This document shows positions 4,132-60,378 of a DNA stretch of 64,000 nucleotides, piece by piece. Under the pieces are notes generated by a model. It was not told the DNA's origin. It searched no databases and saw only the letters and a program-made list of their open reading frames with translations. How positions within the stretch are numbered: the first letter of the stretch is position 1; each line of letters opens with the position of its first letter. Both the position numbers and the translations under genes were made by a program. Location of the stretch: NCBI RefSeq assembly GCF_056712565.1, contig NZ_CM160072.1. One strand, given 5' to 3'.

Positions 4132-5544
4132 ATGGTAGATCAGGTAAAAGTCGTTGCCGATGATCAGGCTCCGGCTGAACAGTCGCTACGGCGCAATCTC
4201 ACAAACCGACATATTCAGCTTATTGCCATTGGCGGTGCCATTGGTACAGGGCTGTTTATGGGGTCCGGCAAAACGATTAGCCTTGCCGGGCCGTCGATCA
4301 TTTTCGTTTATATGATCATCGGTTTTATGCTCTTTTTCGTGATGCGGGCAATGGGGGAATTGCTGCTTTCGAATCTGGAATACAAATCTTTTAGTGACTT
4401 CGCTTCCGATTTACTCGGGCCGTGGGCAGGATATTTCACCGGCTGGACTTACTGGTTCTGCTGGGTTGTAACCGGTATGGCAGACGTGGTTGCCATTACC
4501 GCCTATGCGCAATTCTGGTTCCCTGGGCTTTCTGACTGGGTTGCTTCGTTATCCGTGATCATTCTGTTACTGGTTCTAAACCTCGCCACGGTAAAAATGT
4601 TCGGTGAGATGGAGTTCTGGTTTGCGATGATCAAAATCGTCGCCATCGTGTCGCTGATTGTTGTCGGCCTGGTCATGGTGGCGATGCACTTTCAGTCACC
4701 GACCGGTGTGGAAGCATCATTTGCACATTTGTGGAATGACGGCGGCTGGTTCCCGAAAGGCTTAAGCGGCTTCTTTGCCGGATTCCAGATAGCGGTTTTT
4801 GCTTTCGTGGGGATTGAGCTGGTAGGTACAACAGCTGCGGAAACCAAAGATCCGGAGAAATCACTGCCACGCGCGATTAACTCCATTCCGATCCGTATCA
4901 TTATGTTCTACGTCTTCTCGCTGATTGTGATTATGTCCGTGACGCCGTGGAGTTCGGTAGTCCCGGAGAAAAGCCCGTTCGTTGAACTGTTTGTGTTGGT
5001 AGGTTTGCCTGCGGCTGCCAGCGTGATCAACTTTGTGGTGCTGACCTCTGCGGCGTCTTCCGCTAACAGCGGTGTCTTCTCTACCAGCCGTATGCTGTTT
5101 GGCCTGGCCCAGGAAGGTGTGGCACCGAAAGCGTTCGCTAAACTCTCTAAGCGCGCAGTACCCGCGAAAGGGCTGACCTTCTCTTGTATCTGTCTGCTCG
5201 GCGGCGTGGTGATGTTGTATGTGAATCCCAGCGTGATTGGCGCGTTCACGATGATTACAACCGTTTCCGCGATTCTGTTTATGTTTGTCTGGACGATTAT
5301 CCTTTGCTCGTACCTGGTGTATCGCAAACAGCGTCCTCATCTGCATGAGAAGTCGATCTACAAGATGCCACTCGGCAAGCTGATGTGCTGGGTATGTATG
5401 GCGTTCTTTGTGTTTGTTCTGGTGTTGTTGACACTGGAAGATGACACCCGCCAGGCGCTGCTGGTTACCCCGCTGTGGTTTATCGCGCTGGGGCTGGGCT
5501 GGCTGTTTATTGGTAAGAAGCGGGCTGCTGAACTGCGGAAATAA
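4132..5544 (+). CDS. cycA: D-serine/D-alanine/glycine:H+ symporter (APC family)
   Basis: 470-aa ORF, 12-TM amino acid permease sequence. Confidence 0.95.
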   Translation: MVDQVKVVADDQAPAEQSLRRNLTNRHIQLIAIGGAIGTGLFMGSGKTISLAGPSIIFVYMIIGFMLFFVMRAMGELLLSNLEYKSFSDFASDLLGPWAGYFTGWTYWFCWVVTGMADVVAITAYAQFWFPGLSDWVASLSVIILLLVLNLATVKMFGEMEFWFAMIKIVAIVSLIVVGLVMVAMHFQSPTGVEASFAHLWNDGGWFPKGLSGFFAGFQIAVFAFVGIELVGTTAAETKDPEKSLPRAINSIPIRIIMFYVFSLIVIMSVTPWSSVVPEKSPFVELFVLVGLPAAASVINFVVLTSAASSANSGVFSTSRMLFGLAQEGVAPKAFAKLSKRAVPAKGLTFSCICLLGGVVMLYVNPSVIGAFTMITTVSAILFMFVWTIILCSYLVYRKQRPHLHEKSIYKMPLGKLMCWVCMAFFVFVLVLLTLEDDTRQALLVTPLWFIALGLGWLFIGKKRAAELRK

Positions 5545-5556
5545 CCGCATTATCAT

Positions 5557-5585
5557 GCTGGATGGCGCAATGCCATCCAGCTTTT
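5557..5585. terminator. bidirectional intrinsic terminator between cycA and ytfE
   Basis: GCTGGATGGC-gcaa-TGCCATCCAGC hairpin followed by TTTT. Confidence 0.6.
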
Positions 5586-5588
5586 AGA

Positions 5589-6251
5589 TCACTCACCCGC
5601 CAGCGCGCGCGGGAATAGTACATTGTTTTCCAGACTGATGTGCTCCATCAGGTCATCAATCAGTTCATTAATGCCGTTATACATCGCTTTCCAGGTGGTG
5701 CAGGCTTCCGGCGGCGGTGTGACGTTATTGGTGGTGTGTTTGATCACTTCCAGCAGTTCGCCCGCTTCATCGTGCTCGCTTTCCATTACGCTGATTGGCC
5801 CCATTGCCTGGCTGCCCATGCCTTGTTTAATCATCGGGAAGAGAATTTGCTCTTCTTTCATCATGTGGCTGGAAAGCTCTTCATGCAGCATAGTCAGGTA
5901 TTTTGTCAGCCCTTTTGGCACGCTCGGTTTGTCGGCGTGAACGCGCTCGACTTTAGTCGCTTGCAGGATCAGCTCCGGCAGCTGCTCGCGATGGCGATCG
6001 TGATAGCGCACAATAATGTGGTCGATGATTTCCGCCAGCGGCGCGCTACGCCAGTCTTTTTCAATCGGTTGTTCAGCAAGCTTTGCCAGTTCGGCTTCAA
6101 TGACGTCAACATCCAGTTCTTTACGTGCCGCCGCGCGCGCCAGCGTCTGCTTACCGCCACAGCAGTAATCCATATCATATTTACGAAACAGAGCCGAAGC
6201 GCGAGGAATAGAGAGCGCCAGTTCACCTAAAGGTTGGTCGCGATAAGCCAT
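5589..6251 (-). CDS. ytfE: iron-sulfur cluster repair di-iron protein (RIC)
   Basis: 220-aa ORF; hemerythrin-like His/Glu motifs; NsrR box upstream. Confidence 0.9.
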
Positions 6252-6277
6252 AGCTGATACCTCATTCTTAATAAGAT

Positions 6278-6300
6278 AAGATGTATTTTAAATGCATCTT
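6278..6300. promoter_or_regulatory. NsrR operator in ytfE promoter
   Basis: AAGATGTATTTTAAATGCATCTT, 11-bp inverted repeat with one mismatch, matching the known NsrR box form. Confidence 0.6.
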
Positions 6301-6358
6301 TAAAACAAAAGCTATAACCCTTACGTAGCAGAGGCTTATTTAACTCACTGCCAGCGTG

Positions 6359-7333
6359 TCAACTTTCTGAGACAGATTCAGTTAAAGGTTTTTCTGGTTT
6401 TGCTCTGACCGCAATGACCACGCCAATCACTAACAGCGCGATACCGCTCAGCGTCATTAGCGGCGGCATTTGCTGGCGGAGTAAAAAGGTGTACAGCAAA
6501 CCTGCCAGCGTTTCGAAAACAATCAGCGGCCCGAGAATCACTGTCGGTAATCGCTGGCTGGCGACGTTCCAGCAGAGTGCGCCAATCCATGAGCAAAGCA
6601 CGGCTATCGCAACCATCAGACTAATAAACACCAGCGGACGGGGGCCAAAGGGTAAGGAGAAGTCCGGCGTTTGCATATTCAGCCAGTAACAGGCGACGAG
6701 ATAGCCGATGAGAGAAACCGGCAGCGTGACCAGCGCCTGCGCCGTCGCCCACATCATCGGATGTTTGTCGGGATTTTCCCGCAGCCAGCGGGCGTTGCGC
6801 AGGGCATACCATGCCCAGCAGACCACGGAAACTAACGCCAGCACGATGCCTGAGGTATAACGTGCCCAGTCAAAATCGGGGAGTCCGTGGTTTAACTCAG
6901 CAATATTCACACACGCCAGGCCGATGCCAATACAAACCAGTGCCGGGGCGAGTTTTCCCCACGCGAGTTTGCCGTCGCGCTGGCTATAAAGCAGATTGGC
7001 AAAAACGGGAATCACCACCGGCAGGGTGCCGATAATCATCGTGGAAACAGGCGCGCCAGTACGTTGAATGGCACTGGCAAGGCAGAAGTAATAGATAAGG
7101 TTGCCCATCATGGTGAGCATCAAGGCGGTAAGCCAGTCGCGACGTGCCAACTGACGCAGACGCACGCGTCCCAGCCAGGCAATGGGCAGCGCAATTAACC
7201 CTAGCGCCAGGTAACGCCCCATCGACTGCAACATCGCCGGGTATTCCGGTACGATCAACGGCCCGACAAAAATAAGCCCCCACATCAACCCTGCTAACAG
7301 GGCGTACAGCACGCCGCTAATCATTACTGGCAT
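6359..7333 (-). CDS. ytfF: EamA/DMT-family inner membrane transporter
   Basis: 324-aa ORF (true start may be Met at 7324); multi-TM hydrophobic sequence. Confidence 0.85.
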   Translation of the reverse strand: MPVMISGVLYALLAGLMWGLIFVGPLIVPEYPAMLQSMGRYLALGLIALPIAWLGRVRLRQLARRDWLTALMLTMMGNLIYYFCLASAIQRTGAPVSTMIIGTLPVVIPVFANLLYSQRDGKLAWGKLAPALVCIGIGLACVNIAELNHGLPDFDWARYTSGIVLALVSVVCWAWYALRNARWLRENPDKHPMMWATAQALVTLPVSLIGYLVACYWLNMQTPDFSLPFGPRPLVFISLMVAIAVLCSWIGALCWNVASQRLPTVILGPLIVFETLAGLLYTFLLRQQMPPLMTLSGIALLVIGVVIAVRAKPEKPLTESVSES

Positions 7334-7431: not shown

Positions 7432-8292
7432 CTAGTTATTAACATTAAAAAGATGGCTTACGCTTTCGGCTAACGTTGTCGTTGGGCGGCCAATCAATTT
7501 GCTAAGCGTTTTGCTGTCATCAAACAGACCGCCTTTCGATGCGCCAACGTCAGAATCCGCCAGCATATCCGCCAGTCCATCAGGCAGTCCGACGCTTTTC
7601 AGTGCCGCAGCGAAATCGGCTTCGCTCAGGTTTTGATAGGTAATCGGTTTGCCGCTCTGTTTGGTGAGTTCTGCCGCTAACTGTGTCAGTGTCCAGGCAC
7701 TATCGCCCGCCAGTTCGTAAACCTTGCCTTCATGACCGGCTTCGCTAATTACGCGCGCCGCAGCTACCGCATAATCAGCCCGCGTTGCTGAGGCAATCTT
7801 GCCATCGCCCGCGGCACCGATAAATACGCCGTGTTCCAGTGCTGCCGGGGCGCTGGCGAGGTAGTTTTCGGTGTACCAGCCGTTGCGCAGCAGAGTGTAA
7901 ACGATGCCAGAATCAGCCAGCATTTTCTCCGTCTCGATGTGCTCATCGGCGAGGCCGAGCGGGGAGGAATCGGCATGTAGCAGGCTGGTATAAGCGATAA
8001 ATTTCACGTCGGCCGCCTTTGCGGCATTAATAACATTACGATGCTGCGGGGCACGTTGACCCACTTCGCTGGAAGAGATCAGCAGTAGTTTTTCCACTCC
8101 CTGAAGCGCAGATGTCAGTGCGGCTTCATCGCCGTAATCAGCCTGACGCACGGTAATGCCTTGTGCTGTCAGTACCTGTGCTTTTGCCGGATTACGAACG
8201 ATAGCCACTATTTGGCTGGCAGGAACCGTTTTCATCAAGGATTCAATAACATAGTGACCAAGTTGGCCAGTGGCACCAGTAATAGCGATCAT
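7432..8292 (-). CDS. qorB: NAD(P)H:quinone oxidoreductase (NmrA-like)
   Basis: 286-aa ORF; N-terminal GATGQLG Rossmann motif. Confidence 0.9.
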   Translation of the reverse strand: MIAITGATGQLGHYVIESLMKTVPASQIVAIVRNPAKAQVLTAQGITVRQADYGDEAALTSALQGVEKLLLISSSEVGQRAPQHRNVINAAKAADVKFIAYTSLLHADSSPLGLADEHIETEKMLADSGIVYTLLRNGWYTENYLASAPAALEHGVFIGAAGDGKIASATRADYAVAAARVISEAGHEGKVYELAGDSAWTLTQLAAELTKQSGKPITYQNLSEADFAAALKSVGLPDGLADMLADSDVGASKGGLFDDSKTLSKLIGRPTTTLAESVSHLFNVNN

Positions 8293-8380: not shown

Positions 8381-8761
8381 ATGAGTCAGGTTAGCCTGTC
8401 GCAACAACTCAAAGAGGGAAATCTCTTCGCTGAACAGTGTCCGTCGCGCGAGGTTTTGAAACACGTCACCAGCCGTTGGGGGGGGTTGATTCTGGTGGCG
8501 CTACGCGAAGGTACTCATCGCTTTAGCGACCTGCGGCGCAAAATCGGCGGGGTGAGTGAAAAGATGCTTGCGCAGTCGTTACAGGCGCTAGAGCAGGATG
8601 GTTTTCTTAACCGTATCGCGTATCCGGTGGTGCCGCCGCATGTGGAATATAGCCTCACGCCGCTGGGCGAGCAGGTGAGCGAAAAGGTTGCTGCACTGGC
8701 GGACTGGATTGAGTTGAATTTGCCCGAGGTGTTAGCGGTGCGGGATGAACGTGCGGCATAA
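8381..8761 (+). CDS. ytfH: HxlR-family transcriptional regulator
   Basis: ORF 8270-8761 trimmed to Met at 8381 preceded by AAGGTAAG; winged-helix HxlR-like sequence. Confidence 0.85.
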   Translation: MSQVSLSQQLKEGNLFAEQCPSREVLKHVTSRWGGLILVALREGTHRFSDLRRKIGGVSEKMLAQSLQALEQDGFLNRIAYPVVPPHVEYSLTPLGEQVSEKVAALADWIELNLPEVLAVRDERAA

Positions 8762-10833: not shown

Positions 10834-11022
10834 CAGGGACATCCTTTTATCATCGGGAATACGAAAGAAAAGGGAGAATAAACGTCTTACTTATAGAACA
10901 GTGAAGAATGCCACAATTTTACGCTTTGAAAATGATGACACTATCACAGTTGGCGCATTCATTAACGATAGGGTATAAGTAAAACAATAAGTTAACACCG
11001 CTCACAGAGACGAGGTGGAGAA

Positions 11023-12881: not shown

Positions 12882-12904
12882 ACGGCTCCTGATTCAGGAG
12901 CCGT
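12882..12904. terminator. bidirectional hairpin between ytfK and ytfL
   Basis: ACGGCTCCTG-att-CAGGAGCCGT perfect 10-bp stem. Confidence 0.6.
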
Positions 12905-14262: not shown

Positions 14263-14429
14263 ATCTTATCCGACCTTTCAGGCCAGATCCTCGGAAGGGG
14301 AAGTTGATTAATTTGTGTGAAATACACATTGAAAGCCGATTCGAAGAAAGTGAACCGGCATTTTCAGTGGCTAGTATAGCGTAAGGTACTGTAAAGCCGC
14401 CAGAGGGTTAAAATTCAGACAGCTGAAAA

Positions 14430-14555
14430 ATGAAAAACTGCCTGATGCGCTATGCCGAACAGGCCTACGCAGTCCCCGCAATATATTGAATTTGGACGAT
14501 TTTGTAGGCCTGGCATTTTGTTTACGCCGTATCCGGCATAAACAAAATGCACTTT
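14430..14555. repeat. REP elements
   Basis: GCCTGATGCGC...AGGCCTAC / GCCGGATACGGCG palindromic units between ytfL and msrA. Confidence 0.6.
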
Positions 14556-21319: not shown

Positions 21320-21660
21320 TGCGATGTATCTCGCGATTTTTTTTGTAACTTTCCCATCTTTTGCTTTTCTCTCCGGGCCGCTTTCCATATCTGCAATCGC
21401 ATAAAAAACTCTGCTGGCGTTAACAAATGTACAGGGGTAAAACGGGGACACGCTTTGAACGGTGAGTATGAGTGAGGCCGGCTAACTTCCAGCAAGTGGC
21501 TATGAACAGCAAAATGGTGGTCGAGTTTAGCTTGTTCTTACCGTTCAAGCCTTTCAACTGCTGAAAATAATAATAGTGGAGTAGAGAGTTTATAAATTGC
21601 GGGCATAAAAAACCCTTACTAACCGAAGCCCGGTGTTCAGGGTTATTGCGCCAGAAGAAC

Positions 21661-23465: not shown

Positions 23466-23577
23466 ATGCCTGATGCCGATTCGTAGGCCGGATAAGGCGC
23501 TCGCGCCGCATCCGGCGGTTGTGCGCTGAAGCCTGATGCGACGCTTACCGCGTCTTATCATGCCTACTGGGAGCACG
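23466..23577. repeat. REP elements
   Basis: GCCTGATGC...GTAGGCCGGATAAGGCG... units between ytfQ and ytfR. Confidence 0.6.
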
Positions 23578-29704: not shown

Positions 29705-29825
29705 CCTCAGCCTGATAGAGTGTGTGTAGGCCGGATAAGGCGTTCACGCCGCATCCGGCATTTGAGCATAGTGCCTGATGCGACGCTTGATGCGTCTTAT
29801 CAGGCCTACAGGTGCACCGCATCCG
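29705..29825. repeat. REP elements
   Basis: GTAGGCCGGATAAGGCG / GCCTGATGCGACGC units between mpl and yjgA. Confidence 0.6.
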
Positions 29826-39905: not shown

Positions 39906-39997
39906 TTGCCAGCAGGTATTATATCGCCATAAATGCTACGAATATTATTGGATTCTCCTTATTATTTGCGGCGCTTTTTTCACTTACCGGAGGTTAT

Positions 39998-40051
39998 ATG
40001 GAACCTGATCCCACGCCTCTCCCTCGACGGAGATTAAAACTTTTCCGGTAA
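39998..40051 (+). CDS. mgtL: mgtA leader peptide (proline-rich, 17 aa)
   Basis: [17 protein letters not shown] in the mgtA 5' leader. Confidence 0.8.
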
Positions 40052-40191
40052 GCCCGTCTTTTCACGGCGTTACCGGATGCGTAAGGCCGTGACGTTTTAA
40101 CGTCCCTGCTCAGCTTTATTACCTTCAGGTAAGGCTTCGCCACGCCTGAAGACATTTCTGTACTGTTTCAGACAGTGCGGAGGGACTCCTT

Positions 40192-42888
40192 ATGTTTAAA
40201 GAAATTTTTACCCGGCTCATTCGCCATTTACCTTCCCGTCTGGTTCATCGTGATCCATTGCCTGGCGCGCAGCAGACAGTGAATGCGGCGGTCCCGCCTT
40301 CTTTAAGTGCGCATTGCCTGAAAATGGCGGTGATGCCCGAAGAAGAATTGTGGAAAACGTTCGACACCCATCCGGAAGGGTTAAATCTGGCGGAAGTGGA
40401 ATCTGCCCGCGAACAACATGGTGAAAATAAATTACCCGCACAACAACCGTCGCCGTGGTGGGTACATTTATGGGTCTGCTATCGCAACCCCTTTAATATT
40501 TTGCTCACCATTCTTGGTGCTATTTCTTACGCCACGGAAGATTTATTTGCCGCAGGTGTTATCGCGCTAATGGTCGCTATTTCTACGTTGCTGAACTTTA
40601 TTCAGGAAGCTCGTTCCACCAAAGCGGCAGATGCCCTGAAAGCGATGGTCAGTAATACCGCGACGGTACTGCGAGTAATTAACGACAAAGGCGAAAATGG
40701 CTGGCTGGAGATCCCGATCGACCAGCTGGTGCCCGGCGATATTATAAAACTGGCGGCAGGGGATATGATCCCGGCAGATTTACGTATCTTGCAGGCGCGG
40801 GATCTGTTCGTCGCTCAGGCGTCGTTAACCGGTGAGTCTCTGCCCGTGGAAAAAGCCGCTACTACTCGCCAGCCGGAGCACAGCAATCCGCTGGAGTGCG
40901 ACACCCTGTGTTTTATGGGCACCACCGTGGTGAGCGGCACGGCACAAGCAATGGTGATTGCTACAGGAGCCAACACCTGGTTTGGTCAACTGGCGGGGCG
41001 TGTTAGTGAGCAGGAAAGCGAGCCGAATGCCTTTCAGCAAGGGATCAGCCGCGTCAGTATGCTGCTGATTCGCTTTATGCTGGTGATGGCTCCGGTGGTG
41101 TTGCTTATCAACGGTTACACCAAAGGCGACTGGTGGGAAGCGGCACTGTTCGCACTTTCGGTCGCGGTAGGCTTAACGCCAGAAATGTTGCCGATGATTG
41201 TTACCTCGACGCTGGCGCGTGGCGCAGTCAAGTTGTCGAAACAGAAAGTGATCGTCAAACATCTGGATGCCATTCAGAACTTTGGCGCAATGGATATTCT
41301 GTGCACTGATAAAACCGGCACCCTGACACAGGATAAAATTGTGCTGGAGAATCATACCGATATCTCCGGTAAAACTAGCGAACGCGTGCTGCATAGCGCG
41401 TGGTTGAACAGCCATTACCAGACCGGGCTTAAAAACCTGCTTGATACAGCGGTGCTCGAAGGTACGGATGAAGAGTCAGCGCGCTCGCTGGCCAGCCGTT
41501 GGCAAAAAATTGATGAGATTCCATTTGATTTCGAGCGTCGTCGGATGTCGGTGGTTGTGGCAGAAAATACCGAACACCATCAGTTGGTTTGCAAAGGCGC
41601 ATTGCAGGAAATCCTCAATGTGTGTTCGCAAGTGCGTCACAATGGCGAGATTGTACCGCTCGATGACACCATGCTGCGTAAGATTAAGCGGGTTACTGAT
41701 ACGCTGAATCGTCAGGGGCTGCGCGTGGTTGCGGTGGCGACGAAATACCTGCCAGCGCGTGAAGGAGATTACCAGCGGGCGGATGAATCCGACCTGATCC
41801 TCGAAGGATATATTGCTTTCCTTGATCCGCCAAAAGAGACAACAGCTCCGGCACTGAAGGCATTAAAAGCGAGTGGAATTACCGTAAAAATCCTTACTGG
41901 CGACAGTGAGTTGGTTGCAGCGAAAGTGTGCCATGAAGTGGGGCTGGACGCGGGAGAGGTGGTCATTGGTAGTGATATTGAAACGCTATCTGACGACGAA
42001 CTGGCAAATCTCGCACAGCGCACCACGCTGTTTGCTCGTCTGACGCCGATGCATAAAGAACGCATCGTAACGTTGCTGAAGCGCGAAGGGCATGTGGTTG
42101 GCTTTATGGGCGATGGTATTAATGATGCGCCCGCCTTGCGCGCTGCGGATATCGGCATTTCTGTGGACGGCGCGGTAGATATTGCCCGTGAAGCGGCTGA
42201 TATCATCCTGCTGGAAAAAAGCCTGATGGTGCTGGAAGAGGGGGTTATTGAGGGACGTCGCACTTTCGCCAACATGCTGAAATACATCAAAATGACGGCG
42301 AGCTCTAACTTCGGTAATGTGTTCAGCGTGCTGGTGGCGAGTGCTTTCTTGCCCTTCCTGCCGATGTTGCCGCTACACTTGCTTATTCAAAATCTGCTGT
42401 ACGATGTGTCACAGGTGGCGATCCCATTTGATAACGTCGACGACGAGCAAATTCAAAAGCCGCAGCGTTGGAATCCGGCGGATCTGGGGCGCTTTATGGT
42501 CTTCTTCGGACCGATCAGCTCGATTTTCGATATTCTGACGTTTTGCCTGATGTGGTGGGTATTCCATGCCAACACGCCGGAAACGCAAACGCTGTTCCAG
42601 TCGGGCTGGTTTGTGGTGGGCTTACTGTCGCAAACGCTGATTGTGCATATGATCCGCACCCGTCGTGTACCGTTTATTCAGAGCTGTGCATCGTGGCCGT
42701 TAATGATTATGACCGTGATCGTGATGATTGTCGGGATCGCATTGCCGTTTTCACCGCTGGCCAGTTATCTGCAGCTGCAGGCGCTGCCGTTAAGCTATTT
42801 CCCGTGGCTGGTTGCGATTCTGGCAGGGTATATGACGTTAACCCAGTTGGTGAAAGGGTTCTATAGCCGTCGTTACGGTTGGCAGTAA
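40192..42888 (+). CDS. mgtA: Mg2+-importing P-type ATPase
   Basis: 898-aa ORF; DKTGTLT phosphorylation motif and GDGINDAPAL. Confidence 0.95.
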   Translation: MFKEIFTRLIRHLPSRLVHRDPLPGAQQTVNAAVPPSLSAHCLKMAVMPEEELWKTFDTHPEGLNLAEVESAREQHGENKLPAQQPSPWWVHLWVCYRNPFNILLTILGAISYATEDLFAAGVIALMVAISTLLNFIQEARSTKAADALKAMVSNTATVLRVINDKGENGWLEIPIDQLVPGDIIKLAAGDMIPADLRILQARDLFVAQASLTGESLPVEKAATTRQPEHSNPLECDTLCFMGTTVVSGTAQAMVIATGANTWFGQLAGRVSEQESEPNAFQQGISRVSMLLIRFMLVMAPVVLLINGYTKGDWWEAALFALSVAVGLTPEMLPMIVTSTLARGAVKLSKQKVIVKHLDAIQNFGAMDILCTDKTGTLTQDKIVLENHTDISGKTSERVLHSAWLNSHYQTGLKNLLDTAVLEGTDEESARSLASRWQKIDEIPFDFERRRMSVVVAENTEHHQLVCKGALQEILNVCSQVRHNGEIVPLDDTMLRKIKRVTDTLNRQGLRVVAVATKYLPAREGDYQRADESDLILEGYIAFLDPPKETTAPALKALKASGITVKILTGDSELVAAKVCHEVGLDAGEVVIGSDIETLSDDELANLAQRTTLFARLTPMHKERIVTLLKREGHVVGFMGDGINDAPALRAADIGISVDGAVDIAREAADIILLEKSLMVLEEGVIEGRRTFANMLKYIKMTASSNFGNVFSVLVASAFLPFLPMLPLHLLIQNLLYDVSQVAIPFDNVDDEQIQKPQRWNPADLGRFMVFFGPISSIFDILTFCLMWWVFHANTPETQTLFQSGWFVVGLLSQTLIVHMIRTRRVPFIQSCASWPLMIMTVIVMIVGIALPFSPLASYLQLQALPLSYFPWLVAILAGYMTLTQLVKGFYSRRYGWQ

Positions 42889-52647: not shown

Positions 52648-52690
52648 TTAATGAATTAAAATTCAATCTATATGGATGATTATTCATTTG
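52648..52690. promoter_or_regulatory. tandem ARG boxes (ArgR operator) in argI promoter
   Basis: AATGAATTAAAATTCAAT then TGGATGATTATTCATT, matching the TGAAT-N4-ATTCA pattern, 24-66 bp upstream of argI ATG. Confidence 0.55.
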
Positions 52691-58624: not shown

Positions 58625-58860
<236 letters not shown>

Positions 58861-58863
58861 CAA

Positions 58864-60378
<1,515 letters not shown>

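Follow-up and report, generated by a model that had tools for sequence, protein, structure and literature searches.

Gene content of the locus

The window, by which we mean the whole 64-kb stretch of DNA that was analyzed, is to judge from its sequence part of an Escherichia coli chromosome of the B2/ExPEC type and a relative of strain NU14. NU14 and other ExPEC genomes match the 832-bp ytfE region at 100% identity, and the ytfE region was found in 5,416 of the 5,426 complete E. coli genomes. Only two SNPs (at 8484 and 17007) separate the window from NU14 in its first 21,612 bases, after which an indel near 21613 shifts the register. Compared with K-12, ytfI is missing between cysQ and ytfJ, and extra genes, for a TetR regulator and a 3-ketoacyl-ACP reductase, are present at the left end. 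The gene content also differs near 45 to 50 kb, where the window has an arginine deiminase cluster, arcA-arcC-argF. The genes around the site under study are as follows.

4132 to 5544, plus strand: cycA (open reading frame list and RefSeq annotation of matching genomes)
5589 to 6251, minus strand: ytfE, the gene whose regulation is at issue, encoding a di-iron ScdA_N and hemerythrin protein (open reading frame, RefSeq, Pfam PF04405 and PF01814)
6359 to 7324 as annotated, minus strand: ytfF (the open reading frame list also permits an upstream ATG at 7333)
7432 to 8292, minus strand: qorB (open reading frame list and RefSeq annotation of matching genomes)

As expected of YtfE, the product of ytfE has ScdA_N and Hemerythrin domains. 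The 3' ends of ytfE and cycA converge on a 44-bp gap containing an inverted repeat at 5558 to 5580, CTGGATGGCGCAATGCCATCCAG, which is likely the hairpin of a terminator shared by the two genes. Further along the window, the convergent genes ytfK and paeA are separated by a stretch that includes a perfect, GC-rich 11-1-11 palindrome, ACGGCTCCTGATTCAGGAGCCGT, at 12882 to 12904; it probably forms the stem of a bidirectional terminator and is unrelated to NsrR. Rfam matches at the gathering score were seen at 10834 to 10956, 14324 to 14381, 14461 to 14503, 23486 to 23564, 29729 to 29806, 39983 to 40098, 58714 to 58789, and 59623 to 59817, and the families among these eight are ES239, STnc450, ES036, naRNA4 (REP-like, three times), the mgtA-leader Mg2+ riboswitch, and Ysr276.

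An inverted repeat directly upstream of ytfE

Read directly on the plus strand, positions 6278 to 6300 are AAGATGTATTTTAAATGCATCTT. The parts of this box are listed here.

6278 to 6300, minus strand: putative NsrR operator, a 23-bp 11-1-11 inverted repeat reading AAGATGCATTTAAAATACATCTT on the ytfE strand (assigned from sequence, matrix, consensus, K-12 identity, and conservation)
6278 to 6288: left half-site, AAGATGTATTT in plus-strand sense, in which the T at 6284 is the source of the imperfect repeat
6290 to 6300: right half-site, AAATGCATCTT in plus-strand sense, whose reverse complement, AAGATGCATTT, is the consensus half-site

The first-pass annotation had described an 11-bp inverted repeat with one mismatch at 6278 to 6300, placed directly upstream of ytfE, and we found it correct on both points. 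A repeat finder and a direct count agreed that the arms, 6278 to 6288 and 6290 to 6300, are complementary at 10 of 11 positions (91%) around a 1-nt spacer, T6289. The sole arm mismatch is T6284, where a C would perfect the repeat. The box is thus made up of two inverted AAGATGCATTT-like 11-bp half-sites with 1-bp spacing. Because ytfE is the minus-strand open reading frame at 5589 to 6251 with its ATG at 6251, the box occupies -49 to -27 counted from the A of that ATG, that is, 27 to 49 nt upstream. By itself the inverted-repeat symmetry is unremarkable, as the 64-kb window has two 11-1-11 repeats with at most one mismatch, the second being the palindrome at 12882 to 12904, and shuffled sequences lead one to expect 0.59; the sequence content of the box is far beyond chance.

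The box is a near-maximal match to the NsrR motif

We built a symmetrized matrix from 25 published 11-1-11 NsrR sites of E. coli CFT073 (PMC5320621), excluding ytfE and counting a duplicated site once. With this ytfE-free matrix the box scored 30.29 bits of a possible 31.26, above all 25 training sites, although some circularity survives the removal of ytfE because the published site list itself came from a matrix trained partly on ytfE. The exact score distribution gave P = 6.5e-13 per position for this score, or 4e-8 such sites expected per 64 kb. When the matrix was made from only the ChIP-positive or otherwise known sites, the score was 29.8 bits and the result was unchanged. The runner-up in the 64-kb window reached 13.1 bits, and the top score in 100 shuffled windows was 19.5. 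Comparison with an NsrR matrix had been proposed as the check on the assignment, with a poor score as the outcome that would count against it; the score is close to the maximum.

A second line of evidence is the NsrR consensus from comparative genomics, gATGyAT-N5-ATrCATc (PMC1274295), which is independent of the matrix and which the box matches with 0 mismatches. The arm mismatch falls on the degenerate y/r position of this consensus, and the corresponding matrix column 7 has C at 0.59 and T at 0.34. It is therefore a tolerated variant, neither a defect nor a departure from the motif.

Other matches in the window, at 52658, 3988, 53887, 14544, and further positions, scored 11 to 13 bits and were set aside as chance level; about 0.57 positions of at least 13.1 bits are expected by chance per 64 kb, and the maxima of the shuffled windows averaged 12.9. 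A sequence at 42048 to 42066, GATGCATAAAGAACGCATC, has the NsrR core consensus with one mismatch, yet only 5.0 bits on the full matrix; for this reason, and since it apparently lies inside mgtA, we took it as a chance match.

Conservation and allelic variation

A scan with the YtfE protein, using one genome per species, gave 80 Enterobacteriaceae loci from genera including Escherichia, Enterobacter, Citrobacter, Kluyvera, Klebsiella, Kosakonia, Raoultella, and Buttiauxella. The box was present in all 80, scoring 24 to 31 bits and starting at -47 to -50. An alignment of 81 upstream regions gave a mean column entropy of 0.20 for the box, 1.26 for the sequence upstream, and 0.58 from the box to the ATG. 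The box is a sharp phylogenetic footprint. What variation it contains falls mostly on the symmetric y/r pair (-43 and -33) and on motif positions 4, 14, and 20, and these variable positions are the weakest positions of the matrix.

Two operator alleles occur within E. coli. The imperfect palindrome of the window and of K-12 was found as an exact 48-mer in 3,436 complete E. coli genomes, and the perfect palindrome of the CFT073 type was exact in 888. Across the 81 aligned Enterobacteriaceae regions, the base at window position 6284 is split between A and G at about 48% to 52%. Outside the box, positions 6304 to 6305 are AA on the plus strand, which corresponds to TT on the ytfE strand. Just 117 of the complete E. 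coli genomes have the exact 51-mer with this TT, which therefore looks like a lineage-specific promoter variant.

Promoter elements and a second conserved block

A simple scan of 6150 to 6450 for sigma-70 consensus and terminators found nothing. Our own sigma-70 scoring and the upstream alignment yielded the following elements.

6285 to 6290, minus strand: candidate -10 hexamer A, TAAAAT, in the box center (-39 to -34), from sigma-70 scoring
6273 to 6278, minus strand: candidate -10 hexamer B, TATCTT, adjoining the box (-27 to -22), from sigma-70 scoring
6260 to 6263, minus strand: Shine-Dalgarno GAGG of ytfE (-12 to -9), invariant in the 81 aligned upstream regions
6311 to 6323, minus strand: second conserved block, TAAGGGTTATAGC (-72 to -60), from the upstream alignment

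The hexamer scoring does not separate TAAAAT from TATCTT. In TAAAAT, the bases T, A, and T are invariant across species in the 81 upstream regions, an invariance confounded with the NsrR motif. Hexamer B is TATATT in most other species and is the top-scoring -10 in 26 of 80; positions -28 to -25 are invariant in the 81 regions although -26 and -25 lie outside the box. A third -10 combination was rejected because its start site would land inside the Shine-Dalgarno sequence. With either candidate, the box covers the -10 and spacer or the spacer and -35. In the literature searched, nothing usable turned up on a mapped ytfE start site or on a NarL site at ytfE. Bodenmiller and Spiro are said to have placed the ytfE repeat over the -10 element in 2006.

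The second block has a core, AGGGKTATA, whose distance upstream from the box start is 20 to 21 nt in 74 of the 81 regions and 19 nt in one more. The spacing is generally 20 nt and is 21 nt in Escherichia; the bases G, T, A, and T are invariant, and the core is often preceded by a C-rich run complementary to its G-run. The block is a poor -35 hexamer. It may be a -35-proximal site or a site for a co-regulator, and the literature searched holds no published assignment for it. Readings of the block as a NarL heptamer or as a sigma-54, IscR, or ArcA site, judged by eye, were not in register across species and were discarded.

Farther upstream, about -100 from the ytfE ATG, a CRP-like TGTGA-N6-TCAC motif was noticed by eye in Enterobacter, Citrobacter, Lelliottia, Kluyvera, and Yokenella (loci L010, L013, L024, L026, and L052, among others). 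Escherichia lacks this motif and has the ytfF stop codon at that position.

NsrR control of ytfE

We are highly confident that NsrR controls ytfE through the 23-bp palindrome, its operator at this gene. This reading combines the sequence, near-maximal motif fit, fixed position, deep conservation, and presence of nsrR in a near-identical genome, all from the present analysis, with in vivo occupancy, derepression in nsrR mutants, and cluster chemistry taken from the literature. The gene nsrR itself lies outside the window; in NU14 it is annotated at 4688876 to 4689301, about 29 kb to the left of the window, and its presence in this near-identical genome is indirect evidence that the window's own strain has the cognate regulator. 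As far as sequence can tell, nothing found argues against NsrR binding at the window box.

In the proposed mechanism, NsrR, an Rrf2-family repressor with a [4Fe-4S] cluster, would bind as a homodimer that sets one winged-helix domain on each 11-bp half-site. Bound NsrR would exclude RNA polymerase and keep ytfE silent, because the box covers or adjoins both plausible -10 hexamers and the promoter spacer. We infer that NsrR sterically occludes the ytfE core promoter, in a geometry that is provisional, since the consensus scan found no promoter and the scoring leaves two -10 candidates. NO, whether supplied by the host or formed from nitrite as nitrate is respired, would nitrosylate the NsrR cluster, whereupon the protein would leave the DNA and ytfE would be strongly induced. 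YtfE in turn makes NO from nitrite, and as NO of this origin can nitrosylate NsrR, the circuit forms a feed-forward loop onto NsrR.

Published work agrees with these steps. [4Fe-4S] NsrR represses without NO, and NO generated by YtfE nitrosylates it (PMC9052748); nitrosylation of the cluster by NO abolishes DNA binding (PMC9052748, PMC9338935). In a Salmonella nsrR mutant, ytfE mRNA is up 544-fold (PMC2884951). The ytfE promoter is silent without NO and has served as an in vivo NO reporter in EHEC, in mice (PMC7336997).

Other explanations of the conserved box

The conserved AT-rich palindrome might instead, or in addition, be a Fur box, with ytfE responding to iron directly through Fur. An anaerobic Salmonella fur mutant shows ytfE up 10-fold, and ytfE is listed with a putative Fur motif, but the same table gives no evidence of direct Fur binding at ytfE (PMC3212961). 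Across the ytfE-ytfF intergenic region, the best match to the 19-bp Fur consensus GATAATGATAATCATTATC is 10/19, a level reached at 1,114 window positions, which gives no support to a Fur box. Iron and Fe-S status acting on NsrR offers a simpler account of the fur effect, and Bodenmiller and Spiro reportedly described in 2006 that this status acts on NsrR itself. We consider direct control by Fur through the box very improbable.

We give slightly less credence still to the view that the conservation reflects core-promoter elements alone, a -10 hexamer and an AT-rich spacer, with the palindromy incidental. Candidate -10 hexamers do lie inside or adjoining the box, and chance alone would supply about 0.6 repeats of the 11-1-11 form, with no more than one mismatch, in every 64 kb. 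However, a 6-bp -10 element cannot account for 23 contiguous near-invariant bases, including the outer AAG and CTT, and promoter function fails to explain both the 30-bit fit to a matrix from unrelated promoters and the ChIP-seq occupancy of the near-identical CFT073 site. The repeat could also be thought of as an RNA hairpin in the ytfE leader, an attenuator or stability element, given that a transcribed inverted repeat can in principle fold; of the explanations considered here it is the one we believe least. The fold of 6252 to 6325 on the ytfE strand has -10.2 kcal/mol against -9.6 ± 2.5 for shuffles (z = -0.24), so that leader-hairpin stability above that of shuffled sequence was not found; the arms are not paired with each other in the predicted structure, and under either candidate -10 the box is mostly or wholly upstream of the start site.

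The NsrR operator of ytfE is already known; no other NsrR site in E. coli is stronger, NO-reporter constructs are built on it, and finding it here matters solely as correct annotation. With its operator intact, the strain would retain the canonical switch for nitrosative stress. Small additions that could guide promoter dissection or biosensor design are the allele counts and the second conserved block. A speculative idea, which we think unlikely, though far less so than the alternatives above, is that the block is a second cis-element (for a co-regulator or an unusual RNA polymerase contact), that operator-promoter alleles tune the NO threshold between E. coli lineages, or both. The alleles meant are the imperfect palindrome (3,436 genomes), the perfect one (888 genomes), and the rare TT variant (117 genomes).

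Comparison with characterized NsrR operators

We aligned the ytfE-ytfF intergenic region with those of K-12 MG1655 and CFT073. The K-12 MG1655 ytfE operator (NC_000913.3, 4432010 to 4432032), AAGATGCATTTAAAATACATCTT, is identical to the window box at 23 of 23 positions and has the same ATG distance and flanking genes; published work locates NsrR binding and repression at this K-12 box. The 131-bp aligned region differs at two bases only, which lie 4 to 5 nt upstream of the box and are TT on the ytfE strand in the window versus CC in K-12 and CFT073. The CFT073 operator, at the same locus and position, is one base away from the window box, with G instead of A at -33 (window 6284), which makes it a perfect palindrome; the matrix difference between the two alleles is only about 0.8 bit. 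The claim that this is the known NsrR box of ytfE is thus borne out by identity to K-12, a single-base difference from CFT073, and presence at 80 of 80 loci.

The CFT073 site is well characterized. It ranks first in the genome among 11-1-11 sites, with a PatSer ln P of -25.13, and is covered by an NsrR ChIP-seq peak that has its summit 50 bp upstream of ytfE; a physiological NO source induces ytfE 69.6-fold (PMC5320621). Table 2 of that study enters the half-site 11-mer AAGATGCATTT twice under ytfE (PMC5320621). For K-12, the same paper lists ytfE among the promoters bound in earlier ChIP-chip work (Partridge et al. 2009, via PMC5320621). The E. coli hcp, hmp, ygbA, yeaR, and tehA operators have the same 11-1-11 architecture with AAGTTGCATTT-like half-sites (Table 4, PMC5320621) but are weaker, at 12 to 26 bits versus 30.3 for the window ytfE box with the same matrix.

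The literature searched offered no structure of the E. coli NsrR-DNA complex. In the crystal structure of Streptomyces coelicolor [4Fe-4S]-NsrR with the hmpA1 operator, an Rrf2 homodimer sits on a pseudo-palindromic operator that is likewise 23 bp long (PMC9338935). There, too, NO destroys the cluster and the DNA is released (PMC9338935). The Streptomyces protein differs from its E. coli counterpart in its DNA-contacting residues and its specificity, and it does not bind E. coli NsrR sites with significant affinity (PMC9338935).
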